A DNA stretch of 64,000 nucleotides, taken from a virus. The notes beneath the pieces are model-generated. The model was not told where the DNA came from. It saw only the letters and a program-made list of their open reading frames with translations, and made no database searches. Shown here piece by piece: positions 5,630-64,000 of this stretch. The DNA is taken from the IMG/VR virus record IMGVR_UViG_3300045988_074170. One strand, written 5' to 3'. Each line of letters begins with the position of its first letter. Position 1 is the stretch's first letter. Position numbers and translations under genes: made by a program.

Positions 5630-6003
5630 ATCTGATAAATTTCTTCGTTCAACATTTTTCTATCAAAGGGGTTGGCGTCAATCTTAACATTCTGCCTGTC
5701 AAACTGTCGTAGGAAAGCAGAAATCTCCCTAATGCTTCTTTGGTCGAGGTCAACGAATTTAATATAGTCCGTCTTTCCACCCTGTAAGGACACGACAGCC
5801 CATGAGCCTGAATGGTGATGAACATCGACCGAAACATCGATGTTCCCCAGAAGTTTTCTGATACGTTCAACACGAACCTCAGCCAAAGAGGTCGCACATT
5901 TCTGGCGATGAATTAACCCTTCCAAGTCCCTCTCCAACGCTTTCATCCTTTGAAAATCTTCCTTGAATAAGTATAGGAACAGTTTCCTCAATAGTTTCTT
6001 CAT
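5626..6003 (-). CDS. hypothetical protein (125 aa)
   Basis: ORF with ATGA-type 4-nt overlaps to both neighbours. Confidence 0.55.
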   Translation of the reverse strand: MKKLLRKLFLYLFKEDFQRMKALERDLEGLIHRQKCATSLAEVRVERIRKLLGNIDVSVDVHHHSGSWAVVSLQGGKTDYIKFVDLDQRSIREISAFLRQFDRQNVKIDANPFDRKMLNEEIYQI

Positions 6004-6761
6004 GATTCTTTCTTGGTTTTATTGTTTACACCGTACCCAAACAGGGCATAATCACATTTACAGGGGTCTAACGGATAGACATTACGGCAATTCGTAGTAA
6101 GTTCAAGCACTGTATTCATGCTATCACCTTTGCCCGTTATGAGACCCAATTGACGACCAACGGTTGCGACGTGAGTGTCAAGCGGAATGAGTAGGGACGA
6201 CTGGGGAATGAAACTCCAGATACCTAAATCCACAGGACTGTTTCGACGGCACATCCATCGTAGGAACATATTCAACCGCTTACAGGCAGACTTCGAATCC
6301 TGGGGGATACCTTTCACTCCAGGGAACAGGCTTATCAGTGCATCGAGATAATCTGTGGCTCCCATCGTACGAGTATAGTTCTTAGACAGAGCCTCTTCCA
6401 TATCTTCGTTGTTATCGTAAATCTCCTTGAGCGCACGACACAGGTCAGCGAAGTCCTTTTCCTTGAAGAAACGGTACAGAGGTTCCTCCGAGTCAATGTA
6501 CTTTCGCCAACCCATGTTCTTGATATACATATAGGGAGTCAGACGTTCCATTTCCTTACATAGTTTCTCACAGGTAGAGAGAATGGCTTTCCGATTCCCA
6601 TACGCTAACCAAGCAGCGATGAAGCCAACTATCTCCTGAGAACACTTGTATCCGAACCGTCTGGGGAACTGTACAGGGTCGTCAGTGATGAATTCAGGCT
6701 TCTCGTACTGCTCAGCCAGTTTCATGACTTGATGTCTTAATTTGTCGCTGATTGCTATCAT
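6000..6761 (-). CDS. TIGR02757/DUF2400-like protein with a helix-hairpin-helix-type motif
   Basis: FITDDPVQFPRRF lies near the N-terminus, and LIPLDTHVATVGRQLGLI resembles the HhH segment of EndoIII-type glycosylases. The family call is from memory. Confidence 0.5.
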   Translation of the reverse strand: MIAISDKLRHQVMKLAEQYEKPEFITDDPVQFPRRFGYKCSQEIVGFIAAWLAYGNRKAILSTCEKLCKEMERLTPYMYIKNMGWRKYIDSEEPLYRFFKEKDFADLCRALKEIYDNNEDMEEALSKNYTRTMGATDYLDALISLFPGVKGIPQDSKSACKRLNMFLRWMCRRNSPVDLGIWSFIPQSSLLIPLDTHVATVGRQLGLITGKGDSMNTVLELTTNCRNVYPLDPCKCDYALFGYGVNNKTKKES

Positions 6762-19934: not shown

Positions 19935-19960
19935 GATTACACTTGTTTGATTTACGGAAG

Positions 19961-19991
19961 CAAATATATGTATAAAGATTGACATATCAAA
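19961..19991 (-). promoter_or_regulatory. Bacteroidota-type promoter (TTTG-N19-TATATTTG)
   Basis: -33 at 19991..19988; -7 at 19968..19961. Confidence 0.7.
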
Positions 19992-25159: not shown

Positions 25160-25217
25160 TCTTTTAACGATGAAAGTGGCTGGTTCTTTACGCCAGCCAC
25201 CCCTGTTCAACTTTCTG

Positions 25218-30700: not shown

Positions 30701-31032
30701 ACGCATACACGGTCGACATAGGTAGAGGAACAGTTATAGAAGCGAGCGTGTTTCTCTAACATCAATTCCCCACCATACTGTAATGCACGCTGGGCTCCCA
30801 ATACACGCTGCTCAGAATACAGGCTGTATGCATGAGCAAACATCTTACTGAACTCAGCCTCATCCTCAGGCTTTAATCTACCGGAATAGCGTTTCAAGTG
30901 CATATCCATTACTCTGTTCACGGCATCCTGCCATGTTTCCTTTTTCCCATCATGGGTTTGGGAATACTTGCTCAAAAACACGTACTCCCCGACCACTGGT
31001 CGACTGTCCTTTTCAATCATGTTTCTCTTCAA
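27703..31032 (-). CDS. nrdJ: class II (adenosylcobalamin-type) ribonucleotide reductase interrupted by an intein
   Basis: The exteins join as ...DFVYNP + CGEVGMF, restoring the NPCGE catalytic motif. The C-terminal redox pair is CAGGAC. Confidence 0.85.
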   Translation of the reverse strand: MKRNMIEKDSRPVVGEYVFLSKYSQTHDGKKETWQDAVNRVMDMHLKRYSGRLKPEDEAEFSKMFAHAYSLYSEQRVLGAQRALQYGGELMLEKHARFYNCSSTYVDRVCVFEEIMYLLLCGAGTGYSVQHIHTDRLPVPKGFDNSKQAEKFVIPDTIEGWAEAVGKMMTAYYYGGADIEFDYSAIRPKGAYIRGGFKAPGPEPLRQAIEKCHHIITRIKGRKLRPFELHYLICICANSVVTGGVRRSAMISIFDADDAEMASCKTGNWISTMPELCRSNNSAAILPDTPKETFDSIFEFTKLYGEPGFVFIDKTDFVYNPCFTGETLVAVADGRNAVSIKELAENVKEFPVYSGKWVDKAGRNSKRWKPEIKKAIAFKTGDKEVVEVTLSDGTKFKCTPNHKLALKDGTYLEACKCVGKELQPFFTIKEKYRTICSRSNGYARQYRMIWEYFNGDVPEGFDIDHIENGKGDFIENLHLLERGKHQEKSASERLGENNPMFRRKDVKAYSHNMSISTTLEKNGRYKGLTNKELYEIAKKVHENGGYISCANCNKLDSRFPKNLSKNRFGGKIENLRNLVLSGQPYIEEVDEREYIKPEKESIEISVRVESVVACGVEPVYDLTVEDNHNFYIITKGDENYENCTGVLVHNCGEVGMFPQIKDEDGVTHSGWGFCNLAEINGGKVQSEQDFYDACEAASVICTLQAGYTNFRVLEKWSQLIAERDALIGVGITGLCENPAILFDPEVQKRGAQIVVETNKKIARMIGINEAARCTVVKPSGNSSQLLGTLSGITAGHARHYIRHIQAADTEQAVQEWERVNPDMVEASVWAPDREKVIAFPVTLPEGALLKQNLTAIEFLKYVLLTKQNWIEYGTNLTHPSTLDNPKLRMNVSNTCTVRPDEWDEVREFLWEHRDQFGGISLLSSFGDLDYPQAPYTEVLDEVELAERYGAGAILSSGLIVDANDVFKDVWEACNAAMGLAPQLLTINDKQIADFVVENIKDGRFLVDIDGICFSDVNCVIDYLKRRVERRLDWVRRFNSFADKYMEGDRQKTSYCLKHVNAYHKWQAICRMKPVSYDNIVWEEPLKQAGSEIATACAGGACEIPQRPKK
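29083..30069 (-). mobile_element. intein (329 aa) with an HNH-type endonuclease insert, in the RNR active-site motif
   Basis: The intein starts CFTGETLVAVADG (Cys codon 30069..30067) and ends GVLVHN (Asn codon 29085..29083). The +1 residue is Cys. Internally it carries DIDHIENGKGDFIENLHLLERGKH. Confidence 0.85.
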
Positions 31033-39312: not shown

Positions 39313-40007
39313 AACTTAATATTTCTCACTTCGTTATAATACTTTTCACTTTCCTTAATTAGAACTACTGCCTCACCGCTTGTTTTCGGTAACACACGTA
39401 TTCTTTCATAAATTTCATGACCACGTCCCGGAGCTACTCCTGACTTCCTACATTTTTCAAACAGTTCCTCGCCTAACAAAGTTTTCGAAATTTCGGGTTT
39501 TTCCTTACCGAAAATCATTTGAGGGGTGTTTACCTGTATTTCACCAACAAGACCGTTGCCAAACTCTATATTTAGAATATGACCTGAATATCCAGCAAAG
39601 TTTTCAGGAGTCTGAACCTTATGTCTAACAACCTTAAACTCACCTTTCAGCTCAAAAAGAATTTCATCCAATTTAGATGCTTCAACAATGAACGTGTTTC
39701 TAATTAAGTCCTTCAGCTTTGAAACAGAAGTTCCCTCAAGTAAAATTTTTCGCTTAACACTCTCAACTGATTTTAAACTAACAGACGTAACTCGTATCCC
39801 AAACTTATTCGCAAAACCATAGGAAGCCTTCTGAAAAGAATTTACATTCGGAATAACCTTTTGGCTGAAATAATTCTTAATCTCGACAACCTCGTCAACC
39901 TTTTGAACGCCATATCTTTGTCCAACTCTGTGTAAACGACGATTTTCAGGTGTGTCCTTATACACACCTGAACGAGACTTTAATAGTTGAAATTCAATTA
40001 AGTTCAT
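39309..40007 (-). CDS. RelA/SpoT-like nucleotidyltransferase (small alarmone synthetase-like)
   Basis: SLKSVESVKRKI, LKDLIRNTFIV and GYSGHILNIEFGNGLVGEIQVNTPQM match the synthetase-domain pattern (RxKxxxS, DxxR, GY..H, EIQxxT). Confidence 0.6.
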   Translation of the reverse strand: MNLIEFQLLKSRSGVYKDTPENRRLHRVGQRYGVQKVDEVVEIKNYFSQKVIPNVNSFQKASYGFANKFGIRVTSVSLKSVESVKRKILLEGTSVSKLKDLIRNTFIVEASKLDEILFELKGEFKVVRHKVQTPENFAGYSGHILNIEFGNGLVGEIQVNTPQMIFGKEKPEISKTLLGEELFEKCRKSGVAPGRGHEIYERIRVLPKTSGEAVVLIKESEKYYNEVRNIKL

Positions 40008-40416
40008 GATTTAAAATTGAAAGAGCAACAGAATATTTCTCACGATTATACACCTTTCCTCTATTGGGGTCAGTATTATCAGCAATATCATATTTCTTAA
40101 CATTAATCGCCAAACAGTTTTTACTGCCCCTAATTTTTCGAATGTAATCAAAATAGGGAACGCTTTTATCGTGATTTAATAATTCCAATGCTTGAATAAT
40201 ACAATCGTTATTTGTCACCTCTCGTTTTATATCCTCAACCGTATAATGAGTGTCCTCAAGAACATCATGTAGCAACGCAACAATCTTTTCATCGTCAGTG
40301 AGTGCCATATAAGACACTCTTACAGGGTGTAAGAAATATTGCACACCGCTTTTATCAACTTGTCCCTCATGGGCTTTTTGAGCGAACTGTAATGCTTTAT
40401 AAACTTCTTTTTTCAT
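39994..40416 (-). CDS. HD-domain (p)ppGpp-hydrolase-like protein (small alarmone hydrolase type; start trimmed)
   Basis: ALQFAQKAHEGQVDKSGVQYFLHPVRVSYMAL...IVALLHDVLEDT is the SpoT/Mesh1 hydrolase signature. The ATG is at 40416. Confidence 0.75.
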   Translation of the reverse strand: MKKEVYKALQFAQKAHEGQVDKSGVQYFLHPVRVSYMALTDDEKIVALLHDVLEDTHYTVEDIKREVTNNDCIIQALELLNHDKSVPYFDYIRKIRGSKNCLAINVKKYDIADNTDPNRGKVYNREKYSVALSILNHELN

Positions 40417-40439
40417 ACACTTGTTTTTATTTGACGCTA

Positions 40440-40470
40440 CAAATGTAGTCAAAGAAATTGGAAGAACAAA
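40440..40470 (-). promoter_or_regulatory. Bacteroidota-type promoter (TTTG-N19-TACATTTG)
   Basis: -33 at 40470..40467; -7 at 40447..40440. Confidence 0.7.
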
Positions 40471-48900: not shown

Positions 48901-51900
48901 TTATAACGTCAAAGTAACGATATTCGACTCGAAACAGGCTCTCAGCGTGTTCACCTCTTTACGGTTGTCGTAGGAAAGGATACCATTGATGAGTATCAGG
49001 TTCGCTCTTCCGCACGATAACAGGGGTTCCAACTGTTCGTATTCCTGCTGGAATATCACAATTTCGATGAACTCGTAGTTCTCCTCTAATATCAAACGAC
49101 ACATCGTATCCCCCTTGCGGGTCTTCTTAATCTCCATTTCAGCGATGAACCCAGCCAACACGACGTACCCGTTATTCGGCTTCACTTCCGTGTCGTGACA
49201 CTCCTCAAGAGTAGCATATTCGTAGGCATCAGGGAACTCCCCAGCGAACCTGTCATATATTTTCTGGTAATCAAAGAACGCCAGTCCGGATACTTTCTTT
49301 TGTAGGAGTGCCCACCACCACGCGTCATTGGCGTGGAAGTCGGCTCCAACTAATACAGGGTCATCTTCCTTGACATTTCCCTTCGTTGTTCCGAGGAAGT
49401 GTACAAACAGGTCTATTCGTTCCTGGGGTTTCTTTACCCCCTCAAGACTGTCGAACGCTCCTGCCAATATCAAGTTTCTGATGATACGACTGTTCACTGC
49501 TGAACCCTTCCATTTATGTCGGGTGATAAAGTCGTCTAATGACCAATATTGACCGTTCTCTGTGCGTTCCTTTATAATCTGGGTTGCAGCCTTTTCTGCG
49601 ACCTGTTTGACTCCTGTAATTGACCAATACAAGGCTTTCTCTTTGAAGTTGATAACAACATCGGTATCCGATATATTGATATCCACAGGACGTACCGTAC
49701 AGACTCCCGTTTTATTGATTTCCGCAATATAGCGTGAATAGTCAGACTCCATCGCATATTTAAACGCCACCGACCAATACTCAATAGGATAGTGAACCTT
49801 TATCCACTGAGAGATATAGCCTGTAATTGCATAGGCAGCAGCGTGGCTTCGGTTGAACAGGTACGTCGAAGCCTTATCAATAGCGTCCCACACCTTTTCG
49901 GAGTATTCCTGGGTGACGTTATAGTTGTCCCGATAGTAAGGAATAAACCGTTCTTTGTACTGCTGGAGAGCCTCGTATTTCTTCTTCACCATCGCTTTAC
50001 GAACGTCATCGGCTTCCACCAACGACAGCCCACCCAACTCACGACAGAGTTGCATGATTTGTTCCTGATAGGCAAATACTCCATACGTGTTATTCAGTAT
50101 CTTGTCCGTTCCGGTGAAATACTCAACCTCCTTCTGACCCTCTTTACGGGAGACGTACTCGTTATGGAAGTTGTTCTCCATTGCTCCTGGGCGATACAAT
50201 GAAATAGCAGCGATAAGGTCTTCAATATTGTCTGGCTTCATCTGACGACAATAACCTGTCAATCCGGAACTACCAAAGTGGAAGTTATCCTCGTTCCAAC
50301 CATTCTTGAAATACCTGTACACCTCTGGGTCATCCAACGGCACACTGAAGATGTCTAAATCCACACCCTCGTGCTCCTTCACCAGCCGAACCATGTCCTG
50401 GAACTTGTCGAACTGTTTCACACCCAGCACGTCCTCTTTTAGGAAGCCAGCAGCATCCATCTCACCACCTTCCCACTCGGTTACATACTCCTCGCCATTC
50501 TTACGAATAGGAACCCAATGAAACATATCGTGTTCCTCTGGGAATACCATCATCGCACAGGCATGAATTGACTGAGCCTTTGGTGCGGGCATTATCAGCA
50601 TCACTTCATTGATGAGGTCGGAATGTTCAACGACAAAGTTCTTCACTCGTGAATGAGCACAGGCTATCTTGAACAGGTCTTCAGGCTTCCTGTCCTTGAC
50701 GTCAAACACTTTCATCATTTCGTTCGTTTCCTGGAAGTCCAACCCGTACACACGAGCCATATCCTTGATGGCTGCTCGTAACTGTAATGCGCTGTAAGTT
50801 CCCACGGAACACACCTGTTTCCAGCCGTACCGTTCTTCCATGTATTTCTTCACACGGGGACGGTCTTCACCAGGATAGTCGCAGTCAATATCAGGGAGTG
50901 ATACCTTAACACGTCCTGCGTTCAAGAAACGCTCAAAGAGTAGGTCGTATCGCATTGGGTCTAACTTGGTAATCCCCAACAGGTAGGAGACAAGACAACC
51001 ACCAGCCGAACCACGACTGATACCCGTCATTATACCGTTACGATGGCACCAGTTGATAATGTCCCAAGTAATTAGGAAGTAGTCAATTGCTTCCCCTAAC
51101 TTTATAACACCCACCTCTCGGTCTATTCGTTCCATAATGACCTTTTCACCCCAATCCTCAATGAGGTCTGGGTGACGCTCAAGACCGTCGGCTATAAGAG
51201 ACCAAAAGAGGTCTTCATTTGTTTCGAACTGTTTTGCCTCTTCCTTTGTCATCTTATAGTGAGGCAAGTGTCTCTTCTTTACGTCGATGACAAAGGTTAT
51301 CGCCTCAGCAATGTTTTCGAGGAATTCCAACCCTTCCATGAAACGGCTGTACACGTCCATGAACCCTTCTTCGGTATCCGGAAACATTTGAGCCAACTCA
51401 ACAAACAGTTGGTCGTTCGATTTAAAGTATTGATTATCGCTCTCGTAGGCAGTTGTTCCACCAATACTATGTAGGCGAGGTCTGATACAACTGTACTCCT
51501 CGTCAAGATACCACGCATCAACCGACGGAACGGGTAACAGGTTCTTGTCCTTGAAGAATTTCTTCAGGTTCGTCAGATACCATTCGTCACGGTTATCATC
51601 TACATATTCGCATGGGTCTAACTGATAAACGGCAGCGTCTATATGCAAGTCTTTCAACTTGTCGTAATCCGTTGTCTTCGGGTCAAGAAACATAATCAAA
51701 TCATCGTTGTTAGTGGTGATTTTATTGAAATCCTCAAGACCGATGTACTTCGGATTGTCACAGTTGATGAACTTGTTTATAGTAAGGAGGTCTCGCCAAC
51801 CCTTGTCGTTCCTTGCGTACACCTTAACAGTGAAGCGGAAATCCCGAGGCTGGTCATATACCACACACTCCATACCAATCACGCTCTTGATGTCGTTCTT

Positions 51901-52401
51901 CTGGCATTCCGCTTGGAACTTCAACGCTCCGGCAAGTGAATTCTTTTCACAGATACCCAACGTCTTCACTCCAAGAAACTTTGCCTTCTTACACCAGTCG
52001 GCATACGTTCCCGTCCCGGACATCATTTCATATTGACCATGAACTCCCAAGAATACAGGGGTTTCAATTTCCTGTTTCGCCTGACCGATATATTTCAGCC
52101 GTGTGAGTTTCACGTCATTCTCTTTACCTTTGGCGAGCATATAATACACTCCTCCAAAACTGAATGCGTAGAAGTCACATGATGTTTCGACGGATTCCTC
52201 TCCCGAGCCTTTACGCTTCGGGTCGGCAGGAATACCAACAAAGTTGAACCCGTCATCAAACAGTGCACCGTCATACGCTGGCTGATACAATTCAAAGGTC
52301 TTCCCTCCTATCTCGACCACATAGTCAGAAATAGGAGCGAAGTCCATTAAATTCTTCTCAAGATATTCTTTGAATTTATCCATTGATTTTCTGCTTAACA
52401 A
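48901..52401 (-). CDS. dnaE: DNA polymerase III alpha-subunit-type (family C, DnaE-like) polymerase
   Basis: An N-terminal PHP region is followed by GSAGGCLVSYLLGIT, LPDIDCDY and FNRSHAAAYA. The ORF is 1166 aa and uninterrupted. Confidence 0.9.
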   Translation of the reverse strand: MLSRKSMDKFKEYLEKNLMDFAPISDYVVEIGGKTFELYQPAYDGALFDDGFNFVGIPADPKRKGSGEESVETSCDFYAFSFGGVYYMLAKGKENDVKLTRLKYIGQAKQEIETPVFLGVHGQYEMMSGTGTYADWCKKAKFLGVKTLGICEKNSLAGALKFQAECQKNDIKSVIGMECVVYDQPRDFRFTVKVYARNDKGWRDLLTINKFINCDNPKYIGLEDFNKITTNNDDLIMFLDPKTTDYDKLKDLHIDAAVYQLDPCEYVDDNRDEWYLTNLKKFFKDKNLLPVPSVDAWYLDEEYSCIRPRLHSIGGTTAYESDNQYFKSNDQLFVELAQMFPDTEEGFMDVYSRFMEGLEFLENIAEAITFVIDVKKRHLPHYKMTKEEAKQFETNEDLFWSLIADGLERHPDLIEDWGEKVIMERIDREVGVIKLGEAIDYFLITWDIINWCHRNGIMTGISRGSAGGCLVSYLLGITKLDPMRYDLLFERFLNAGRVKVSLPDIDCDYPGEDRPRVKKYMEERYGWKQVCSVGTYSALQLRAAIKDMARVYGLDFQETNEMMKVFDVKDRKPEDLFKIACAHSRVKNFVVEHSDLINEVMLIMPAPKAQSIHACAMMVFPEEHDMFHWVPIRKNGEEYVTEWEGGEMDAAGFLKEDVLGVKQFDKFQDMVRLVKEHEGVDLDIFSVPLDDPEVYRYFKNGWNEDNFHFGSSGLTGYCRQMKPDNIEDLIAAISLYRPGAMENNFHNEYVSRKEGQKEVEYFTGTDKILNNTYGVFAYQEQIMQLCRELGGLSLVEADDVRKAMVKKKYEALQQYKERFIPYYRDNYNVTQEYSEKVWDAIDKASTYLFNRSHAAAYAITGYISQWIKVHYPIEYWSVAFKYAMESDYSRYIAEINKTGVCTVRPVDINISDTDVVINFKEKALYWSITGVKQVAEKAATQIIKERTENGQYWSLDDFITRHKWKGSAVNSRIIRNLILAGAFDSLEGVKKPQERIDLFVHFLGTTKGNVKEDDPVLVGADFHANDAWWWALLQKKVSGLAFFDYQKIYDRFAGEFPDAYEYATLEECHDTEVKPNNGYVVLAGFIAEMEIKKTRKGDTMCRLILEENYEFIEIVIFQQEYEQLEPLLSCGRANLILINGILSYDNRKEVNTLRACFESNIVTLTL

Positions 52402-53023
52402 GTTCCGTTATATCGTCACCATCCTTACAACCCAACGACAGGAAGTATTGAGCAAACTTCTCGCTGACATGGTCATTCAATTCATAGGAGTCCGAATGAT
52501 AATCACAGAAGTATATCTGAACTTCTTTACCTGTCGCCTCGGCAACCTTGAAGATAGCCTCAGCCTCACAGTCGAAACGCAATGAGCCAAACACGATATC
52601 GCACATAAGAGCGTCTTCTTCAGACATCTTTGCCCAACTGTTCGTAACAGCGTTTGCCGTCCAACGTGCCCATACGTCTTCTCCAGCCAATGACTTGAGA
52701 TATTCGCCTGTACGCCGTAACAGTTCACGACCCTCAACCCGTACCGAGTCAAGAATATTAGGAGACTCTTCTTGAGGCTTGAACGGTAACAAGATGTCGC
52801 TGCTCAACTGTTTCCACTTCGCATACGCTTCACCCGTACAGTCAATCTTCTTTGATTCCCCTGTAAAGATGTTCATCAACGTCTGGCGAATTCCTTCACT
52901 GAAATCTCCCATAATCATGGGTCGTTCTTCACACGCAGCACCAACCATAAGTGCTTCTGCTTGGTACGATTTACCGGAGCCAATAACCCCTACCAAGCCA
53001 TATATCTTTCCTTTAAGGCTCAT
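52376..53023 (-). CDS. P-loop deoxynucleoside-monophosphate-kinase-like protein
   Basis: Walker A is GVIGSGKSYQAEAL. The size and layout resemble the phage T4 gp1 type. Assignment relies partly on context. Confidence 0.5.
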   Translation of the reverse strand: MSLKGKIYGLVGVIGSGKSYQAEALMVGAACEERPMIMGDFSEGIRQTLMNIFTGESKKIDCTGEAYAKWKQLSSDILLPFKPQEESPNILDSVRVEGRELLRRTGEYLKSLAGEDVWARWTANAVTNSWAKMSEEDALMCDIVFGSLRFDCEAEAIFKVAEATGKEVQIYFCDYHSDSYELNDHVSEKFAQYFLSLGCKDGDDITELVKQKING

Positions 53024-53552
53024 ATTGATTCATGAATTTTTGAATGCTCTTGAAGAGTTTCCAGCCGTCCGTGTACTTCTCCAACAGTTGTTCGCAGTTT
53101 GTGATACAAGTCAATAACTTCTTGGACGTGTTTCCCAGAGCCTGTTCGCTCTTACAGAATATCCATAAGTCCAAATAATCACAGGTCTTGAAAAGACGGT
53201 ACTGGAGGTCAGTCATTGTCTTCTTAATTTCTTCATCGGAATACGGCAACAGGTTCACGTCGCCATAACAGATTTCGTATTCAATGATATCCCATGCCGC
53301 AGCCGTGTTCTCATTGAATTTCTTTACGCACGCATTGAGGTCGCCTGTAACACTTTCCACGTAGTCGTGGAGTAACACCTTGTCAAACACGTTGATGTCG
53401 TAAGCAACGTCCTCTTCTGAGGCAAACCAACGAAATAACATGCCTACCACCAACCCATGCTCCAAGAGGTTGTACCCCCTGTGATGGGGGGTATTAGGCA
53501 ACCTCTGGATGTCTTTCATCCCTAACAGGATGTCAATCTTCTTGAAATTCAT
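53013..53552 (-). CDS. HD-domain 5'-deoxynucleotidase (YfbR-like)
   Basis: RLPNTPHHRGYNLLEHGLVVGML, LLHDYVESVTGDLNACVKKF and TCDYLDLWIFCKSEQALGN are collinear with the E. coli YfbR motifs. Confidence 0.7.
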   Translation of the reverse strand: MNFKKIDILLGMKDIQRLPNTPHHRGYNLLEHGLVVGMLFRWFASEEDVAYDINVFDKVLLHDYVESVTGDLNACVKKFNENTAAAWDIIEYEICYGDVNLLPYSDEEIKKTMTDLQYRLFKTCDYLDLWIFCKSEQALGNTSKKLLTCITNCEQLLEKYTDGWKLFKSIQKFMNQYEP

Positions 53553-53584
53553 AACTAAATTGTCTTTATTTTAGTGGATAATTC

Positions 53585-54703
53585 TTATCCGATGAACAGT
53601 TCGTTCAGTAACGGGTTCCGGAACTCTACCAACTGTTTTGTCCAATAACGGAAGATAACCTTTGCCCAGTCAGAGAACATCTCATCTTCAAACTTTTCAA
53701 TATCCGCACGCAATAACTCGAAGTCCTGTTCTGTACGGTTTTCACTGTTACGACAGTTTTCTTCGAACTGGCTCAACTGAGCGATAAGCGCATCGAACTC
53801 CTCTAAAGTTTTAAACGTCGTCTTATAGGAAAAGTTTACTCCGGAAGGATACGAATTTGGGTCTCTTTTAGCGATTTCTTCAGCCAACGGAATGAAGTCC
53901 TTATAGACATGAAGATTGTCTGCCTTGTGGTAATATTTCCCGACAGGCACGCCCACTATCGCTGCGACGTACTCCTGCATCAATGTAAAGTTGAACACGT
54001 TCACCGCACTGAACCCCCAGATAAGGTCATTCGAACGGATATCCACGTAACAGTTCATCTTTCCATTCACTATCATGAAGTGGATTGAACGGGTACACGG
54101 TGTATCCTTTGTGAGGAGCAATGGAGCCTTTTCCCCGTCCTCTTCATTCTGATTGAAGTTGTCAGAGATAGGGTCGTGAATTGTGATAACCGCTTCACGG
54201 GTATCGATGTCCTGCTTGAACTTTTCAATGACGAACCGTAATTGGTCAGTCACGTTCTGGTACAGTCCGGGAGCCTTCAATTTTGAATAACGACCGTTTT
54301 CGTCTGCTTTACCGTTCTTATACTGTCGCGGAAGTAACTTTCCGGACAATGTTACCATCGAATCAAAATTGTCCCCGTAACGACGTATTCTGGGTCCATA
54401 TCCCGCTCTCATGAACTTCCCATCATCTGAAAAGTTTACAAGGTTCTTCACGTAGGAAGCAGGCATCTCAAGACTGTTATCCCCACGAGCCAACCACAGG
54501 GACTCAATCCACCCCAATGTTTTGTTCCATTTACGCTCCGGAACACGAACATAGCGGTCGGTCGGATTAGTTATCTCAATGAGGACGGCTCCAGGGAACT
54601 CACGACATTCGAACCCTCTTCGGGTAACGTCAATCCCTTTATCCATCAATTCCTTACAAAGTAGCACCAGCGCACTACTCAAATTTTCTGCTTGAAAATA
54701 CAT
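53585..54703 (-). CDS. thymidylate-synthase-fold enzyme, uracil-specific (ThyA or dUMP hydroxymethylase)
   Basis: DTPCTRSIHFMIVNGKMNCYVDIRSNDLIWGFSAVNVFNFTLMQEY...ADNLHVY aligns with E. coli PPCHAFFQFYV...QRSCDVFLGLPFNIASY...GDTHLY. The Asn equivalent to N177 is retained rather than replaced by Asp, which points to dUMP rather than dCMP as substrate. Confidence 0.75.
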   Translation of the reverse strand: MYFQAENLSSALVLLCKELMDKGIDVTRRGFECREFPGAVLIEITNPTDRYVRVPERKWNKTLGWIESLWLARGDNSLEMPASYVKNLVNFSDDGKFMRAGYGPRIRRYGDNFDSMVTLSGKLLPRQYKNGKADENGRYSKLKAPGLYQNVTDQLRFVIEKFKQDIDTREAVITIHDPISDNFNQNEEDGEKAPLLLTKDTPCTRSIHFMIVNGKMNCYVDIRSNDLIWGFSAVNVFNFTLMQEYVAAIVGVPVGKYYHKADNLHVYKDFIPLAEEIAKRDPNSYPSGVNFSYKTTFKTLEEFDALIAQLSQFEENCRNSENRTEQDFELLRADIEKFEDEMFSDWAKVIFRYWTKQLVEFRNPLLNELFIG

Positions 54704-54717
54704 AAGTCTTTCTTGAT

Positions 54718-55752
54718 TTAATCGATTAATAATTCTCCTGGCTTGGGCAACTTAGCATTCCACTTCGGGGGGAATACGAACTCAATCTTCTTCGGACTCT
54801 TTTCGTAGGTGTGCTTGATACGTTCATTTCTACCTTTGTTGAAAGACGCTCCTAATCCCTTTGCAAACTTCGATGTTTCACAGAAACAGTTCTGAAGATT
54901 TGTAAGAGTAGGAACAGGCTCCCACGGTAACGGGTTCCACTTCATACCTGTCTTTTCGCAGAAGTCACCCATCAGCCTTTCAAAGTTGTCGTGAACCCAC
55001 TTGATAGTGCCCACATAGTCATAACGCTTTCCGGACGCTCCGTCAAATGTCCAACCGATACCTTTCAGCGACCCTGGACCAGTGATGACAAAATCGTTTT
55101 CCGAAAAGTTAAACAGGGGTGAATAATTCAGGTCAATGCAATATTGCTGAGCCGTGAAGTCCCCGTAGATTTTCATATTCCTGAAAACCCAATACAAGTC
55201 CTCAAAGGTCTTCGCCTCTAAGAAGTCATACAAGTGTCCGTTCTGAAAGATTTCATCTTCGAAGATACGAAAGTGGGCACGATGCTTGCTCATCCCTGTA
55301 ATATGTTTATATTCGGGATATTGATAGAAGAAGCAGTTCACGATGTAGGCATTACCATATATCGTGTCTCCGCCATCAACAACCTTGTCAAGAAACTTCG
55401 CTATGTTTTCCAAGCCTGTTTCGTAGGTGATGTCCCCGAACTCCTTTTCCAACAAATCCCACGTTTCGTTCTTATTGAAATGCTTGAAAAGCAATATGCG
55501 AAAGAACATATCCTCTGGTTCATACTGTTTGCCATTGTAAATTACACGGCTCAACAGGTATTGGCTGACCCTATCCAAGCATCTATAAACATTGGTGAAC
55601 TTGAATCCCCGAAGTATTTCATCGTCTGTCCATGGTCCAACCTGTCCATTGTACTTTTTCCAGAAAATGTTTTGTCTTTCGCATATCCAATACAAAAACC
55701 AATTAAATGTTTCTAATGGAACTGGCTTAAACGATTTTATATCTTTTCCCAT
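54718..55752 (-). CDS. aGPT-Pplase-like protein (alpha-glutamyl/putrescinyl-thymine pyrophosphorylase family candidate)
   Basis: The N-terminal segment ERQNIFWKKYNGQVGPWTDDEILRGFKFTNVYRCLDRVSQYL matches my recollection of the PWT-D-x-IL...F-x-NV-[YF]-R-x-x-DR signature. This is not verified by a search. Confidence 0.5.
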   Translation of the reverse strand: MGKDIKSFKPVPLETFNWFLYWICERQNIFWKKYNGQVGPWTDDEILRGFKFTNVYRCLDRVSQYLLSRVIYNGKQYEPEDMFFRILLFKHFNKNETWDLLEKEFGDITYETGLENIAKFLDKVVDGGDTIYGNAYIVNCFFYQYPEYKHITGMSKHRAHFRIFEDEIFQNGHLYDFLEAKTFEDLYWVFRNMKIYGDFTAQQYCIDLNYSPLFNFSENDFVITGPGSLKGIGWTFDGASGKRYDYVGTIKWVHDNFERLMGDFCEKTGMKWNPLPWEPVPTLTNLQNCFCETSKFAKGLGASFNKGRNERIKHTYEKSPKKIEFVFPPKWNAKLPKPGELLID

Positions 55753-56521
55753 TCGTTAATTCTCTTGATTTTATAAATTTACATAAAGATTTCCGGCACA
55801 CCCCTAAAGATTCTTTAGCAATTCCAATTGAATCAAAAGTCCTCAAAATTTCCCCTGAGTCAGAAATTTCAATCACTCTTTTAGAACGTTCCCGTTTAAA
55901 ATCTTCAGAATGATGCTTACCATAAAAAGGATTCTTTTCTCCTAATTTTGATTTAGAAAGATTTAACTTGTGAGTTTCAGAAAATTTCCTTCCCTTCCTT
56001 GCTAAAGACATTTTCAAACGAACCTCTACAGAGGCTTTCTTTCCTAAATGTGCTTTAGAAATACGCTTTCGACCCTCTTCGGTTAAATAACACTTTCCTC
56101 TTCTACTTTCCGCAGATTTTCTTATTGATTCTTTTGATGGATGATAACCCTTTCGAGCTAAAGACATATTTCTACGACCTTCTTCTGAAACTTTCCAAGA
56201 CGCACCCAATGTGCCTTCACCACCATCCGTCGTATTGTACCCGTTGCGTCGGGTGTCGTACTTCTGAATGAAGTGTCTCTCAAGGAAGTCAAGCTTCGCT
56301 TTAAGAGCCTGTAAAGAGGAAGCCTCAACCGATATGACTTCCTCTATTGTGAAGTTCTTGGAACCGTACTTTCGAATCGCTCTATGAAACTTGAGAGCGG
56401 AACCGTTGTTAGCGGAAACAACATGCTGGCGCCACCGTGCCTCAATCGACCTAACAGTTTGCCCAAAATACGGCTTTCCATTCTTTAGGCAAGTGACGCA
56501 ATATATTATCCCGCGCTCCAT
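55727..56521 (-). mobile_element. free-standing GIY-YIG homing endonuclease (copy B)
   Basis: MERGIIYCVTCLKNGKPYFGQT, FHRAIRKYG and YNTTDGGEG, followed by repeated basic NUMOD-like modules. Confidence 0.8.
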
Positions 56522-57258
56522 TATTTACCTTTCTCAAACGTTTCAAAAGAGTTTCTTTCAATGTAGTCCGACGCTTCACAGAAAGCCACGAACTCTTCAC
56601 ATAGTTCTGACAGCCCAAAGAAATTGAAAATATGAACACCCAAGTCCCAGACCGGAGCGTCATACGGTTGGTCGTGAAGAACCACACAACCGCCAGCCTC
56701 ATTCACCTCTTCTCCCTCTCTTTGAGCCTTTTCGAAGTCGTGCATAAAGGTTCTGTGCTTTCGCCACATGCAATCTCCCTTAGGAGACTCGCCAGACCTG
56801 TATGCTATCCGAGCACAATACTCATCCCATTGGTCGTCACGGTAATCATACCTGACATGGAGAATGTTCGTAAACTCACTCTCTCCGCATAAATCCAAGG
56901 GACGCAATCGCCATGATACAGTTGTTCCTGCACCATCAATCAAAACTCCATGCCCTGCCTTAGACGTTTCCTTCAAGAAGTAGGATAGACCCTCAGCCTT
57001 GCACAGTCGCGACGTCATACTGTCGTAACCTTGCCAGCGTCGGATACCGCCATTCTCATAGAATTTCCCAACGAAAACCATATTGAAGTCCTCGGAGTAA
57101 ACCCCGACTTCCTTTTCCTTTCCGTCAAGTGTCTTAAACTTGTATGGGCGGAGTTTCATACCTAATGATTCGAAGAACTCGAGGAAGAGGTAAACCCTTG
57201 TAGATTTACCGCTCCCCGAGATGCCTTTAACCAATACTATGGATTCCCCGTCAACCAT
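56521..57258 (-). CDS. P-loop kinase (candidate 5-hydroxymethyl-dU DNA kinase, by context)
   Basis: Walker A is VKGISGSGKST. The only element separating it from the aGPT-Pplase-like gene is a homing endonuclease. Confidence 0.45.
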   Translation of the reverse strand: MVDGESIVLVKGISGSGKSTRVYLFLEFFESLGMKLRPYKFKTLDGKEKEVGVYSEDFNMVFVGKFYENGGIRRWQGYDSMTSRLCKAEGLSYFLKETSKAGHGVLIDGAGTTVSWRLRPLDLCGESEFTNILHVRYDYRDDQWDEYCARIAYRSGESPKGDCMWRKHRTFMHDFEKAQREGEEVNEAGGCVVLHDQPYDAPVWDLGVHIFNFFGLSELCEEFVAFCEASDYIERNSFETFEKGK

Positions 57259-57978
57259 TTACTTCTTCTTTGGAGTTTTCTTTGCGGGTGCAGGTTTGGC
57301 GTCCTCAGCCAGTTCCAACGCTGTTACACGTTTCTTGATAGGCTTGTCGTCACCGAACTTGACCATACACTTTTCTTTTCCGTCTCCGGACTTGTACAGG
57401 CGAGTGATTTCACCAACAGCGTCCTCGCCTTTCAGGATAACTTTCGAACCTACTTTCAGTCCCGGAATTTCTTCCGATTCTTCGAGGTTCTGACGTTTTG
57501 TTTCACGAGGAGTCTTGTCGGCTTTCGCTGACTTCTTTTCCTTCATAGACTTGTCTGATTTAGACGGAGTCTTGCGGTTTTTCTGACGTTCCTCGTACTC
57601 TGCCTCAGCCTTTGCCAAGCGTTCTTCCTCTTCCGGAGTCAGTTGTTCTTCTGACTGATAGGTAGAGTTGCGTTTGTTCTGACGTTTCATTGCTGCTTCG
57701 GGTGAACCGTCTTCAGGGTCGGGGTCTTCAGCAGCCTCTTCTTTCGCAGCTTTCTTAGGAGCAGCCTTTTTGTCAGCTTTCTTTTCAGCGACTTTCTTGG
57801 CTGGAGCTTTCTTAGGAGCTTCCTCTTCTTGAGCGGTTTCGCCACCTAATTTGTCAAGGAACTCTTGAGCTACCTTAACTTCCAATTCACTTGAATTTTC
57901 ATCATTGATGATTTCTTCGAGCTTTTCAGCATCGAACTTTCTGTACTTCATCCGAAGTGCTAATGCATTACTTGCCAT
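57259..57978 (-). CDS. histone-H1-like Lys/Ala/Glu-rich protein with a small C-terminal globular domain
   Basis: Contains APKKAPAKKVAEKKADKKAAPKKAAKEE and ends PAPAKKTPKKK. The C-terminal segment is GLKVGSKVILKGEDAVGEITRLYKSGDGKEKCMVKFGD. Confidence 0.6.
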   Translation of the reverse strand: MASNALALRMKYRKFDAEKLEEIINDENSSELEVKVAQEFLDKLGGETAQEEEAPKKAPAKKVAEKKADKKAAPKKAAKEEAAEDPDPEDGSPEAAMKRQNKRNSTYQSEEQLTPEEEERLAKAEAEYEERQKNRKTPSKSDKSMKEKKSAKADKTPRETKRQNLEESEEIPGLKVGSKVILKGEDAVGEITRLYKSGDGKEKCMVKFGDDKPIKKRVTALELAEDAKPAPAKKTPKKK

Positions 57979-58041
57979 AATCGTTTTTACTTTTAATTAT
58001 TAAAATTGTTTTTCTGTGATGTTTTATCACTTATCTCGCTA

Positions 58042-58049
58042 CAAATATA
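58042..58049 (-). promoter_or_regulatory. -7 box TATATTTG; the -33 box is unclear
   Basis: TATATTTG lies 64 nt upstream of the ATG at 57978. Confidence 0.4.
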
Positions 58050-58096
58050 ACTGGAAATTTTCGAAAAGGTTTAATTTTCTCCCCGAAAAATCGAAA

Positions 58097-58297
58097 TTAT
58101 TTTTTGCCGGAATGACCAAATCCACCCGCACCTCTCTCAGTGTCAGTGAGTTCTTCGACTGAAGAAACTTCGACAACTTCCTCGACTTTTGCATACGGAG
58201 CAAAGACGATTTGGGCAATTCTGTCACCATTCTCGATTGTTTGTGGTTCTGTCGACAGGTTAATCAACGGAACACCTACTTCCCCACGATAATCCAT
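58097..58297 (-). CDS. dut: dUTPase C-terminal part (exon 2 or separate C-fragment)
   Basis: (M)[14 protein letters not shown]...GDRIAQIVF...[11 protein letters not shown] carries dUTPase motifs 3 (second half), 4 and 5. Confidence 0.8.
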
Positions 58298-58385
58298 TTA
58301 ATTTTGGAGATTGTTAATCTAACAGGCTCTTTATCCTGCTATTTCTTTGCTTTATTTTGTTATATGCAAAGTTCAGACTATATCT

Positions 58386-59084
58386 TCACTTTCTTTTGAA
58401 AGGCAGGACACTCGTGTCAGCATTACTGTCCTCAACCTTACTTGTTTGGACTCGGCTGTTAGTCGTTGAACCTTCAAGAACATTACTGTTCATGCTTGGC
58501 TGCTGATTGCCCACTTCTGGGTTTTCCAGCAATTCACCCTGTTTTAAGACGCCAATTATTCTGCCTGTTTTATTGTCTCTAATAATTGTCTTTTCAAAAT
58601 TATGAATTGTCGTATGCTCTCCGCGAGTTAAAACTTCAAGATTTTCTAATCGATTGTCAGTCTTATCTTCATTTATATGATGAACATCGTAACAATCTTT
58701 CAAAACTATCCAGCCACATATATTTTCAAACAGTTCTTTAGAAAACTTGTCATAGTTTCTTTCAATGATTAATCTGTGTTTCAATATATAAGTTGCCTTC
58801 CCTCTATCTCGAATTTTACCACCTTTAGGATGTCCAGGAACATTTTCCATTATATAACCTGCTGAATTTATCTTTTCATCATGCTTATAGGAACTATTCA
58901 ACTCCCCTGTCAATCCAAACTGATGGTTCCCCTCACCCGTCATATATCTTGAACGTAAAATCTTTCCACATTCTTTTGAGCATGAAACTCCATGAATTTG
59001 ACGTTTAAGTCTTGACGGCTTTACCCACATTTTAACTCCACAAATTGAACATTGACAATTTGGTTCTCTATCAAATTTTCCCAT
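58386..59084 (-). mobile_element. HNH homing endonuclease inserted within the dUTPase gene
   Basis: HHINEDKTDNRLENLEVLTRGEHTTIH is preceded by an N-terminal Cys-rich region (CQCSICG...CSKECG). The ATG is at 59084; the ORF-track start at 59147 is a TTG. Confidence 0.8.
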
Positions 59085-59143
59085 ACCATTTATATTTATC
59101 GGCACAAAGTTAGTCAACTTTAATAAAGAACCATAGACTCTTA

Positions 59144-59416
59144 TCAAGCAGTCATTAAAAGTCCAGCGTCTATCGTTCCGGGAGCATTGATTACGGTCAG
59201 ACCCTGTTTAACAGCGCAACCGCTGCGAGGTCTAACCTGACCCTCGTACCCCTGTTCGATTTCCATGTACAAACCAGTAGGAATGATTTTACGCTCCATA
59301 GGAGCCAACGTGATTGAACCCTCGGGAAGATAAGCACGCAAGTCCATACCCGAACTGTCTGGAGTTTTGTACTCCGGCAGAGCATTTGTGCTCTTGTTTA
59401 CGATTTTTAATTTCAT
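59144..59416 (-). CDS. dut: dUTPase N-terminal part (exon 1 or separate N-fragment)
   Basis: SSGMDLRAY, RPRSGCAVKQGLTV and NAPGTIDA carry motifs 1, 2 and the first half of motif 3. This is followed by a non-conserved GLLMTA-stop. Confidence 0.8.
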   Translation of the reverse strand: MKLKIVNKSTNALPEYKTPDSSGMDLRAYLPEGSITLAPMERKIIPTGLYMEIEQGYEGQVRPRSGCAVKQGLTVINAPGTIDAGLLMTA

Positions 59417-59946: not shown

Positions 59947-60657
59947 TTATTTCCATAAATATCCTCGATAAGGCAAACCATCCTCAAGTCTTTTCCTTAA
60001 AGTATGCCCATTCAATTTCAGTTCTCGTTTGATATCAATTATAGTATTCCATTCTTTAATAAATATTCCACCCTTCGAATATTGAAATACTTTTCTACAA
60101 TTATTTTGATACCCAGGTTTTCCCGAATTCGCTTCTGATATTTTTCTTTTTGTTTCTTCTGAATGATGTTTTCCATATAATGGATGATTCTTTCCAGAAA
60201 GTTTATGATTTCCGAAATTCGAATTTAATTCCCCAATTCGTAATTTAGCAGCATCGCTCATTCTTTTCAAAGTCTCATCCGAAAATTTTCTACCTTTCAA
60301 GGCTTTGCTGATTTTAGCAAGTGATTCTTCAGAAAGATTTACTAAACCATCCCCACCATCTGTCGAATTATACCCGTCAATCTTAGTGTTGAACCGCTTT
60401 ATAAGCCTCATTTCAGCGTAGTCAAGTTTCCTCTTGAGAGCATCCTTCGTAGGAGCCTCCACGAACATCACCTCTTCGACCAGGAAGTTCTCCTCACCAT
60501 ACTTTCGTATGGCTCGGTGGAACTTGTGGTCGGAGCCTCGCTGAGAAGAACGAACATGCCGTCTCCAACGACTCCTTATAGAGAGCATCGTTTGCCCGAA
60601 GTACAGTTTCCCAGTGGGCAGACAGGTGACGCAATATATGAAGCCTTTCTGAATCAT
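59947..60657 (-). mobile_element. free-standing GIY-YIG homing endonuclease (copy C)
   Basis: MIQKGFIYCVTCLPTGKLYFGQT, FHRAIRKYGEENF and YNSTDGGDG. It shares a 59-nt identical block with copy A. Confidence 0.8.
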
Positions 60658-63349: not shown

Positions 63350-64000
63350 TTAAACTGCGTCAATTTTTATCATTACAGTGCTCTCTCGTAACTTGTTAAT
63401 CGCCATGAAAGAGGAAGACACGGTATCATCGTGCCCACTGATACTCTCAAGAGTTCCCTTATCGCTGCGGAACGCAACCGAGTTGAACTCCCCAAACATC
63501 TGGTCAATCTTAGCAGCCGTGTCAGGATGATACGGGCACTTGATTACACCTCTCTCAAATAACGCTGCAAGTGATGCCCACCCTGTTCTCAGGTCTTTCT
63601 TATTCCCGGAAGTCGTCGTGAACGGTGTAATATTCTTGATACCCATCTGAACGCACATATCCGCCAATATACTTTGGAAGCCGTTGTTTTCCACGACTAT
63701 CTCGTTTGGCTTGAACACCCTGTTCAGTAGGTCAATCTTCTGTATCTGTTCATTATGAGATAATCCCTTTTCCCGGAATATGTATAGGAGATAATAATTC
63801 CCCTGGACATCCTTCCCCCAAACTGTATAACAAGTATAGTCGGCTCCCACATTTCCTGAGACAGCGAAGTCACAACCCATGACCACCCTCTGTAACTTGA
63901 TAGGAAACGACTCTATGTTATCAACGAGCCTGACGTTTTCCATCCCGATTGTACTCCTCTTTAATATCTCCCAAGGGAAGATTGTACTGTCGTCGGAAAT
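63350..64000 (-). CDS. terL: terminase large subunit, C-terminal nuclease part (the gene continues beyond the right edge)
   Basis: VVMGCDFAVSG..ADYTCYTVW, IVVENNGFQ and GHDDTVSS follow the RNase H-like terminase nuclease pattern. The frame stays open from 63943 up to position 64000. Confidence 0.7.
   Translation of the reverse strand: MSDDSTIFPWEILKRSTIGMENVRLVDNIESFPIKLQRVVMGCDFAVSGNVGADYTCYTVWGKDVQGNYYLLYIFREKGLSHNEQIQKIDLLNRVFKPNEIVVENNGFQSILADMCVQMGIKNITPFTTTSGNKKDLRTGWASLAALFERGVIKCPYHPDTAAKIDQMFGEFNSVAFRSDKGTLESISGHDDTVSSSFMAINKLRESTVMIKIDAV

Follow-up and report, generated by a model that had tools for sequence, protein, structure and literature searches.

Does the gene block at positions 52376..59416 of the virus record IMGVR_UViG_3300045988_074170 encode a route for replacing or modifying thymidine in phage DNA and, if so, how far does that route go? 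The whole stretch of the record that we analyzed is 64,000 nt long and is called the window below. The original prediction, made from its letters alone, read the block as a set of genes for thymidine hypermodification, in which 5-hydroxymethyl-deoxyuridine (5-hmdU) is built into DNA, phosphorylated there by a P-loop kinase and then substituted by an enzyme of the aGPT-Pplase type. Our analysis indicates that the block is probably a thymidine-replacement or thymidine-modification module in which 5-hmdU would be made, incorporated, phosphorylated and processed by a PF18723 protein. A supply of 5-hmdU and a 5-hmdU DNA kinase beside the polymerase gene are backed by profile hidden Markov models (HMMs), homology to phage ViI and synteny, whereas substitution by an aGPT-Pplase-type enzyme is not established. 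Judged by protein families, the module appears to be a pared-down version of the established pathway of 5-hmdU hypermodification that has only a type 2 kinase (HMUD2) and the PF18723 protein, with the predicted pre-replicative steps and the kinase step well supported by homology.

All genes of the cluster lie on the minus strand in an operon-like arrangement. Neighbors overlap or are separated by no more than 32 nt, and the cluster continues without a break into the abutting gene for a DnaE-type DNA polymerase III alpha subunit (48901..52401, also minus strand; DNA_pol3_alpha 4e-59, with finger, HHH_6 and PHP domains) directly downstream. The six open reading frames (ORFs) listed in the original prediction were all found on this strand, with exactly the limits it had assigned them, but its inventory missed an intron in dut, a GIY-YIG gene (55727..56521) and a conserved gene (57259..57978).

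In the proposed pathway, an intron-spliced dUTPase would provide dUMP, and the catalytic Cys of a thymidylate-synthase (TS)-fold enzyme would add a one-carbon unit at C5 of dUMP, the intermediate being hydrated instead of reduced to give 5-hmdUMP. An HD-type 5'-nucleotidase would clear the competing dTMP, and a 215-aa P-loop kinase together with the host NDP kinase would take 5-hmdUMP to the triphosphate, which the phage polymerase would use to make DNA with 5-hmdU replacing T. In the polymer, the HMUD2 kinase would phosphorylate the 5-hydroxymethyl group to yield 5-phosphomethyl-deoxyuridine (5-PmdU). The PF18723 protein, encoded directly after the kinase, would process this base, most likely by flipping it out and attacking C6 with Cys291, after which phosphate would leave and the exocyclic methylene would be captured by a nucleophile or hydride. 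The dUTPase, TS-fold and HMUD2 steps are predicted from membership in families with experimentally characterized members and the nucleotidase step from guilt by association, while we infer the triphosphate and PF18723 steps.

Predicted enzymes for the production of 5-hmdU nucleotides

The TS-fold protein (53585..54703; PF00303 5e-17) had been described as either a true ThyA or a dUMP hydroxymethylase, and the evidence favors the second. Its best match in the PDB is the CMP hydroxymethylase MilA (1.3e-18), compared with 2.6e-8 for the best ThyA, and its best matches in cultured phages come from Maribacter phages, Bacillus phage G, SP10 (annotated as dUMP hydroxymethylase) and SPO1 (gp29). BLASTP scores are 125 bits with both SPO1 gp29 and SP10 gp188 and 107 bits with ViI gp66, as opposed to 46.6 bits with E. 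coli ThyA and 38.5 bits with T4 gp42. All NCBIfam ThyA equivalogs were missed (32-66 bits against cut-offs of 108-427), the best scores being 66 bits (cut-off 174.55) and 43 bits (cut-off 108.35). The alignment is numbered on E. coli ThyA, used as the reference. The enzyme retains C146, E58, Y94, R166, S167, D169, N177, H207 and Y209, among them the catalytic Cys and the N177-equivalent Asn that the original prediction had pointed out; N177 is of the uracil type, and T4 gp42 differs at that position. Several traits are hydroxymethylase-like: W80 is absent, W83 is replaced by F, H147 by T and L143 by D, and a C-terminal extension of ~90 aa, as found in hydroxymethylases, replaces the ThyA tail. 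A neighbor-joining tree, the test that had been proposed for this protein, places it within the hydroxymethylase-like group, apart from ThyA and T4 gp42, and by sequence it groups with SPO1 gp29, SP10 gp188, ViI gp66 and YuA gp17. On these likenesses, 53585..54703 is most likely a dUMP hydroxymethylase. In Maribacter phage Colly_1 (L001:8300-13059), the closest TS-like gene of a cultured phage adjoins genes for a beta-glucosyltransferase, a UDP-glucose dehydrogenase and an epimerase, which suggests a glycosylated hydroxymethyl-pyrimidine in this flavobacterial phage.

The assignment of 53013..53552 as a YfbR-like HD 5'-deoxynucleotidase holds, with PF12917 at 4e-14 (53 bits, cut-off 25.9) and a visible H...HD...D motif, while the score on the NCBIfam equivalog is 32 bits against a cut-off of 122. 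Only 19 homologues are present among 50,697 phage records. They come from Pseudomonas phages of the YuA/M6 type, from the Bordetella FP1 group, from two Rhizobium phages and from Cobetia phage Carin-5, for which T-hypermodification has been described. The YuA homologue is gp18, encoded immediately after the hydroxymethylase gp17, so that the pair has the order seen in the window. Because both this phage distribution and the gene order fit, the HD protein is a candidate for the dTMP-depleting enzyme.

The third protein of this group (52376..53023, 215 aa) had been called dNMP-kinase-like. A Walker A motif is present and the fold is that of a P-loop kinase: the AlphaFold2 model (pLDDT 93.8) matches APS, adenylate, CMP and TMP kinases in Foldseek at E >= 5e-4. 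The dNMP label comes only from PHROG 139 (4.5e-6), its sole family match. An hhalign comparison with T4 gp1 aligned only 23 columns around the P-loop, and a PDB profile search with the family returned nothing. The family appears as a lineage-specific group of P-loop small-molecule kinases, with 183 homologues found and no Pfam domain in any of them. The protein is a kinase, and its role as (hm)dNMP kinase is that of a weakly supported candidate.

The 5-hmdU DNA kinase and the PF18723 protein

The profile searches assign the two proteins expected to act on polymeric DNA to the 5-HMUDK family (PF18747) and to the former aGPT-Pplase clade 1 (PF18723), in line with what had been proposed for them. 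The gene at 56521..57258 encodes a P-loop 5-hmdU DNA kinase of type 2, as the match to PF18747 ('5-hmdU DNA kinase 2') is 5.5e-24 (85.3 bits, cut-off 25). In the ViI genome it matches only gp243, at 24.5% identity (E 1.2e-20), with homology along most of its length and with the Walker A and other motifs in common. ViI gp243 itself scores 5.6e-169 on PF18747, and it phosphorylates 5-hmdU DNA in vitro (PMC8989533).

The 344-aa protein at 54718..55752 belongs to PF18723 (HMUDK_hel, 'HMUDK helical domain') at 4.6e-75 (253 bits, cut-off 25). Its sole match in ViI is gp160 (27% identity, E 2.6e-20), with which it has the motifs PWTD...FxNVxRxxDR and CFCE in common. The original prediction had linked its N-terminal motif to the aGPT-Pplase family; the motif is there, with a spacer of four residues rather than five (PWTDDEIL-RGFK-FTNVYRCLDR), and the link is right in the old naming, but clade 1 is not the clade of the proven transferases. 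This distinction follows from the ViI proteins scanned with the same Pfam release, in which gp247 is PF18724 (ADDT), gp160 is PF18723, gp67 is PF18748 (HMUD1) and gp243 is PF18747 (HMUD2). The proven amino acid and amine transferases are all clade 2 (PF18724), not PF18723. GenBank and UniProt entries retain the name aGPT-Pplase clade 1 for PF18723.

Eleven residues (R26, D60, N93, T97, W98, K156, Q203, D207, C291, E292 and K295) are invariant in 48 PF18723 homologues. The AlphaFold2 model of the window protein is all-alpha (pLDDT 93.7), and in the BFVD database Foldseek matches it to the SP10 5-hmdU DNA kinase F8WQ30 (gp186; E 5.9e-12, TM 0.72) as well as to PhiW-14 C9DG43 and phiRSL1 (E 1e-10 to 6e-12). 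Against the PDB, the same model gave only marginal matches to HhH-glycosylases (E > 3), and PDB sequence searches with the PF18723 protein, the HMUD2 kinase, the DUF2400 protein discussed below and ViI gp247 gave nothing useful; no ADDT structure was found there by sequence. A local HMM built from the 48 homologues recovers SP10 gp186 (2.5e-39) and YuA gp14 (2.5e-25), the latter corresponding by cluster position to M6 gp55. From the matches to ViI gp160, SP10 gp186, YuA gp14 and PhiW-14 C9DG43, every characterized group of hypermodifying phages has a PF18723 member. ViI gp160 was also among the five lysates that are sufficient for the synthesis of 5-(2-aminoethoxy)methyl-deoxyuridine (5-NeOmdU), although its necessity was never shown (PMC5889632).

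The coupling of kinase and PF18723 takes three forms. The two ORFs overlap in those relatives of the window from which the GIY-YIG insertion is missing, they are neighbors in YuA (gp13-gp14), and in SP10 they are fused (gp186).

Conservation of the cluster and its bacterial relatives

Gene order is kept in 31 of the 33 IMG/VR loci found with the PF18723 protein, at 46-100% protein identity, and runs DnaB, primase, orf163, dut, K/E-rich gene, kinase, PF18723, TS, HD, P-loop kinase, PolIII-alpha; the intron and the homing endonucleases vary among the 33 loci. More distant contigs, with ~41% identity in PF18723, keep HMUD2, PF18723, TS and PolIII-alpha together, and one of them keeps the HD gene too. 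Such an arrangement is far beyond chance. The K/E-rich gene (57259..57978) encodes a Lys/Glu/Ala-rich protein of 239 aa that lies between dut and the kinase gene in all related loci (49-99% identity) and matches nothing in Pfam, PHROG or NCBIfam. It has histone-H1-like KKAAPKK repeats and a small C-terminal domain, and may bind DNA.

PF18723 homologues were also found at 80 loci in GTDB representative genomes (L241-L320; 21-46% identity, most 32-46%). These are mostly from Bacteroidota, with isolates and complete chromosomes among them. At 52 of the 80, the next gene after PF18723 encodes a hydroxymethylase-like TS, in the same order as in the window. This bacterial TS-like protein is 36-42% identical to that of the window, closer than SPO1 or SP10, and the closest cassette relatives of the PF18723 protein are 35-46% identical to it. 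HMUD kinases occur at only one or two of the 80 loci. Neighboring genes encode Nmad1 (DUF1599), a ThsB-type TIR protein and Nmad2, with SLOG or rSAM-SPASM variants; L243:2140-5528 and L249:5983-10818 are examples, and in some loci rSAM-SPASM replaces the TS. Work with DefensePredictor validated as defensive a system of E. coli whose domains include TS and '5hmdUk' (PMC13092281), and the bacterial PF18723-TS cassettes are probably this system. By sequence and gene order, the PF18723-TS pair is an evolutionary unit that this lineage of phages has in common with chromosomes of the phylum to which its host probably belongs, which weakens the idea that PF18723 is a mere appendage of the kinase.

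Evidence against the proposed pathway

A number of results weigh against the pathway as outlined, and the first group of them concerns enzymes that did not turn up. Pfam or PHROG scans covered the window ORFs of at least 110 aa. To these we added a genome walk into the contig IMGVR_UViG_3300045988_070094 (107,782 bp), which agrees with the window at 96-99% identity in the cluster region and at ~90% over positions 1-3316, closing the circle on the start of the window; 45.5 kb of it lying beyond the window were scanned. No match to PF18724 (ADDT) was found in the Pfam scans of the window ORFs or of this 45.5-kb remainder of a near-identical genome, nor was any HMUD1, pyridoxal-phosphate (PLP), radical-SAM, glycosyltransferase or TET/JBP protein seen in either. 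The earlier remark that no PLP or radical-SAM tailoring enzyme is visible in the window thus extends to the remainder. Likewise, no dCMP deaminase or dTTPase was recognized in these scans. In tblastn searches of the window, ViI gp247 gave only E > 8, gp67 gave nothing and gp226 was not detected, and a local ADDT HMM reached at best E 0.075 on six-frame translations. What the 45.5-kb remainder does encode is portal, capsid, baseplate and tail-tube proteins, BACON domains, Listeria-Bacteroides repeats, inteins, homing endonucleases, NUDIX, Rep3_N and RNase_T. The original prediction had cautioned that the adduct could not be predicted and may be simpler than the known ones; because PF18724 is absent from both the window and the remainder, this caution is justified more strongly than could be seen at the time.

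The absence of ADDT is a trait of the lineage of the window, since a more distant relative, a contig binned to Cloacimonadota, has an ADDT-like gene directly upstream of PF18723. In another distant relative, L237 (JGI 3300056977), HMUD2 and PF18723 are separated by two genes of 363 and 393 aa without Pfam matches (L237:7785-10038), and PF18723 is separated from TS by a gene of 252 aa (L237:11110-11868); these extra genes may be lineage-specific tailoring enzymes. Two other candidates were set aside. A DUF2400/TIGR02757 protein (6000..6761, 2e-62) was considered as a glycosylase-like transferase; it lies 48 kb away, and its ~40%-identical homologues occur in cultured Bacteroidales phages of 45-74 kb. 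Some DUF2400 homologues are annotated as N-glycosylase/DNA lyase. The NUDIX domain was considered as a dTTPase and is unsupported in that role, as it lies inside a 433-aa protein of the structural module (L155:14000-15301).

The second group concerns the proteins that are present. The PF18723 model resembles the ADDT models in BFVD only weakly (Foldseek E 0.056-0.6, TM ~0.4), and the hhalign alignment of PF18723 with ADDT is not significant (probability 0.3%, E 0.18), although it places C291 on the catalytic Cys of ADDT. Pfam now names PF18723 as a kinase-associated helical domain. No activity has been demonstrated for the family, and its M6 counterpart gp55 is dispensable for glycine transfer in vitro (PMC8989533). 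At the 52 bacterial loci the PF18723-TS pair goes without any HMUD kinase, so 5-PmdU is not necessarily the substrate of PF18723. The assignment of 52376..53023 as a dNMP kinase is weak, and a DnaE-type polymerase may not accept 5-hmdUTP. Finally, virion DNA could be canonical.

Function of the PF18723 protein and alternative explanations

Within the proposed pathway, the question is what happens to 5-hmdU once it is phosphorylated. Given the placement of C291 on the catalytic Cys of ADDT in that alignment, an ADDT-like mechanism of the PF18723 protein (attack of the Cys at C6, elimination of phosphate and formation of an exocyclic methylene) is plausible. We raise, tentatively and as a possibility that we would not yet favor over its negation, that PF18723 has catalysis of its own, such that the HMUD2 kinase and a stand-alone PF18723 protein would be sufficient to resolve 5-hmdU. 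The outcome would be either the conversion of 5-PmdU to thymine or a new, simple adduct formed without ADDT, and the same enzyme, joined with the hydroxymethylase-like TS, would be the effector core of the Bacteroidota Nmad/TIR cassettes.

It is rather unlikely that PF18723 is instead a non-catalytic or specificity partner of the kinase, acting in DNA binding, base flipping or the addition of a second phosphate, with a final base of 5-hmdU that is partly 5-phosphomethyl- or pyrophosphomethyl-deoxyuridine. The current Pfam name and the SP10 kinase fusion would fit such a partner, as would the fact that the phage PF18723 gene always adjoins the kinase gene or is fused to it and that no nucleophile-supplying or tailoring genes were found in the genome; moreover, the SP10 kinase domain is active alone, and M6 gp55 can be omitted from the transfer reaction (PMC8989533). 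Yet the invariant Cys-Glu and several further invariant polar residues resemble an active site, 52 of the 80 bacterial loci pair PF18723 with a TS-like enzyme in place of a kinase, and the virions of characterized hypermodifying phages are without 5-hmdU.

Another explanation, which we regard as improbable, is that PF18723 reverts phosphorylated 5-hmdU to thymine in the polymer through Cys-dependent elimination and hydride capture, so that replicating DNA would be hmU-rich and packaged DNA mostly T or a T/hmU mosaic. All characterized groups whose DNA contains T together with a hypermodified base encode PF18723 (PhiW-14 gp72, SP10 gp186C, ViI gp160 and YuA gp14), and the known conversion of 5-hmdU to T lacks an assigned enzyme (PMC5889632). 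ADDT can yield thymidine when borohydride takes the place of the amino acid (PMC8989533), so a related active site could feasibly perform such chemistry. Nevertheless, this argument is purely correlative, no reductant-binding domain or cofactor motif was identified in the protein, and it is hard to see what the phage would gain by reverting its whole genome. In addition, SP10, in which PF18723 is the only Pplase-like domain, still makes glutamyl-thymidine (PMC5889632).

The two remaining explanations reject the pathway as a whole. That the block is an ordinary salvage or dTMP module (ThyA, dUTPase, nucleotidase and kinases) serving canonical replication, with misleading matches to hypermodification families, is very unlikely: PHROG does label all TS-fold matches 'thymidylate synthase', the catalytic Cys and N177 are compatible with ThyA, and dUTPase and ribonucleotide reductase are common in phages, but the TS-fold enzyme falls below the ThyA cut-offs, has lost W80 and H147 and groups with hydroxymethylases, the PF18747 and PF18723 matches are strong, span most of each protein and extend to the ViI proteins, and the HD homologues are restricted to hypermodifying phages. 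Equally remote is the idea that the PF18723-TS pair is a captured Bacteroidota Nmad/TIR defense cassette used for pool manipulation, counter-defense or superinfection exclusion and not for modifying the phage's own genome, even though both proteins have their nearest relatives in the bacterial pair, which has the same gene order and is accompanied by Nmad1, Nmad2 and ThsB-TIR, and even though a TS and '5hmdUk' system protects E. coli (PMC13092281). In the phage, the pair is joined by genes for an HMUD2 kinase, an HD nucleotidase, a dUTPase and a P-loop kinase, all in a replication operon beside the polymerase, and profile scans of the window and the 45.5-kb remainder found no Nmad or TIR partner.

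The dUTPase gene, its intron and other mobile elements

The region 58097..59416 had been taken for a single dUTPase gene. It does encode a real trimeric Dut, but not as one ORF, as the gene is split by a group I intron of 870 nt that carries an HNH gene. In the Pfam scan, the two halves are seen as separate ORFs (59144..59416 and 58097..58297). Alignment of the DNA with the uninterrupted dut of a relative (L004) maps exon 1 to 59165..59416 (minus strand, like the other elements of this section), which has 84 codons, ends with ...GTIDA inside motif 3 and matches PF00692 at 1e-7 and, with this N-terminal part, NCBIfam dut at 1.5e-27. Exon 2 (58097..58294; PF00692 2e-14) runs from DYRGE... to the C-terminal GFGHSG motif. 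The intron boundaries are 59165|59164 and 58295|58294, the last base of exon 1 being T and that of the intron G. The predicted spliced dUTPase has 149 aa, is collinear with the intron-less dut of relatives and has five readable motifs.

The intron itself (58295..59164) matches Rfam RF00028 at 58357..58606 with 64.4 bits (E 1.1e-14; gathering score 50), and the homing-endonuclease ORF within it (58386..59147) matches HNH_3 at 3.4e-8. It is absent from 28 of the 30 related loci that contain dut, and the 3' part of the intron/HNH region is 83% identical in nucleotides to the dut intron/HNH region of crAssphage (Carjivirus communis), which suggests intron exchange among gut Bacteroidales phages.

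The second insertion in the cluster is a free-standing GIY-YIG/NUMOD3 homing-endonuclease gene (55727..56521; GIY-YIG 2.9e-7, NUMOD3 2e-12, TIGR01453 4.5e-25), placed exactly between the kinase and PF18723 genes. Both this gene and the dut intron/HNH are mobile insertions outside the pathway. Free-standing GIY-YIG/NUMOD genes occur three times in the window (55727-56521, 59947-60657 and 24383-25210), and relatives either have other GIY-YIG variants, some at these positions and some elsewhere, or have no such gene. Contig IMGVR_UViG_3300045988_070094 has an insertion of ~980 bp in its PolIII-alpha gene that is absent at ~50074-50078 of the window and is probably another mobile intron or homing endonuclease.

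The phage and its host

The phage is ~108 kb in size, comes from the human gut and probably infects Bacteroidales. The host assignment is drawn from several clues. A Shine-Dalgarno-like 4-mer precedes only 9 of 60 genes, compared with 13.6 +/- 3.2 at random positions, and the leaders are A-rich. Homologues of the DUF2400 protein occur almost only in cultured phages of Bacteroides, Parabacteroides, Alistipes and Phocaeicola, and BACON and Listeria-Bacteroides repeat domains are found in the structural module of the near-identical genome. The dut intron, moreover, is common to crAssphage. A megablast search of INPHARED with the region recovered nothing from related phages beyond this intron.

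The window scans depict a replication and nucleotide-metabolism region with GroEL, ribonucleotide reductase, helicases, RNase H, NAD ligase, SbcCD, RecA and a sigma factor. Individual ORFs include a PNK3P/HAD polynucleotide 3'-phosphatase-like protein (2930-3688), a second HD protein (HD_4; 39994-40452), an ECF-like sigma-70 factor (19323-19985) and the GroEL homologue (26004-27623). The 1109-aa ribonucleotide reductase ORF (27703-31032) matches its profile in two stretches that lie apart, suggesting that an intein or another element is inserted there. A Terminase_6C nuclease domain lies at the end of the window (63350-63943) and is part of a 1122-aa ORF in a relative (L048:7226-10594); Intein/Hint and LAGLIDADG domains were detected around the terminase region of related genomes, suggesting that the large terminase contains an intein.

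Implications

Our literature search found no description of such a module for Bacteroidota phages, and a search on the Pfam family names found nothing. The published metavirome survey of these pathways queried only HMUD1-type kinases (PMC8989533). HMUD2-only lineages were probably missed for this reason, ViI gp67 matching nothing in the window. A single 90%-identity protein cluster of the PF18723 gene has 3,796 member sequences. If the proposed pathway is correct, an abundant lineage of human-gut phages replaces thymidine with a base derived from 5-hmdU, with consequences for host range, for sensitivity to restriction and CRISPR and, in gut viromics, for biases of sequencing or PCR. Lacking ADDT and tailoring enzymes, this phage would also be a clean setting in which to assign the function of PF18723, and such an assignment would help to interpret the PF18723-TS pair in the bacterial defense-type cassettes.

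Comparison with known systems

CrAssphage, like the window, carries an intron/HNH in its dUTPase gene; it belongs to another phage family, and no hypermodification cluster is known there. In the bacterial Nmad/TIR cassettes (Aravind-type), we find the same PF18723-TS order and the nearest relatives of both window proteins, but these cassettes are chromosomal, are without an HMUD kinase and have a presumed role in defense, not in genome modification.

The hmU phages SPO1 and SP8 have a dUMP hydroxymethylase of the same clade as that of the window (33% identity, 125 bits), and their logic of dTMP depletion and a dNMP kinase is alike. The SPO1-type pathway is, however, pre-replicative only, with no 5-hmdU DNA kinase or Pplase, and the mature DNA retains 5-hmdU (PMC8989533). 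The Pseudomonas phages M6 and YuA, which make 5-(2-aminoethyl)-deoxyuridine (5-NedU), have the kinase gp13 followed by the PF18723 protein gp14 and the hydroxymethylase gp17 followed by the HD protein gp18, and both adjacencies match the window. Beyond the window set, they encode an ADDT (gp10), a PLP enzyme (gp11), a radical-SAM enzyme (gp12) and an HMUD1-type kinase; they are siphoviruses of 60 kb with a family A polymerase.

The Salmonella phage ViI, a Kuttervirus with 5-NeOmdU (Lee et al. 2018, 2022), has like the window a TS homologue (gp66; 29%, E 6e-30), an HMUD2 kinase (gp243) and a PF18723 protein (gp160), and a kinase, the TS-like gene, dnk and a dUTPase lie in one block. It encodes in addition an HMUD1 kinase (gp67, PF18748), an ADDT serine transferase (gp247, PF18724) and a PLP decarboxylase (gp226). 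Its post-replicative genes are scattered, whereas those of the window are contiguous, and its hosts are Enterobacteria. In the Bacillus phage SP10, which makes alpha-glutamylthymidine, likewise no clade-2 transferase was detected (PMC5889632). Its kinase and PF18723 are coupled as the gp186 fusion, compared with two genes in the window, and two genes away lies the dUMP hydroxymethylase that is the closest characterized relative of the window TS. SP10 differs in having a second kinase (gp218) and a radical-SAM protein (gp185) (PMC5889632), and it is a member of the Herelleviridae with a Firmicute host and a different polymerase. Overall, the module of the window is most like SP10 in logic and most like ViI in sequence.

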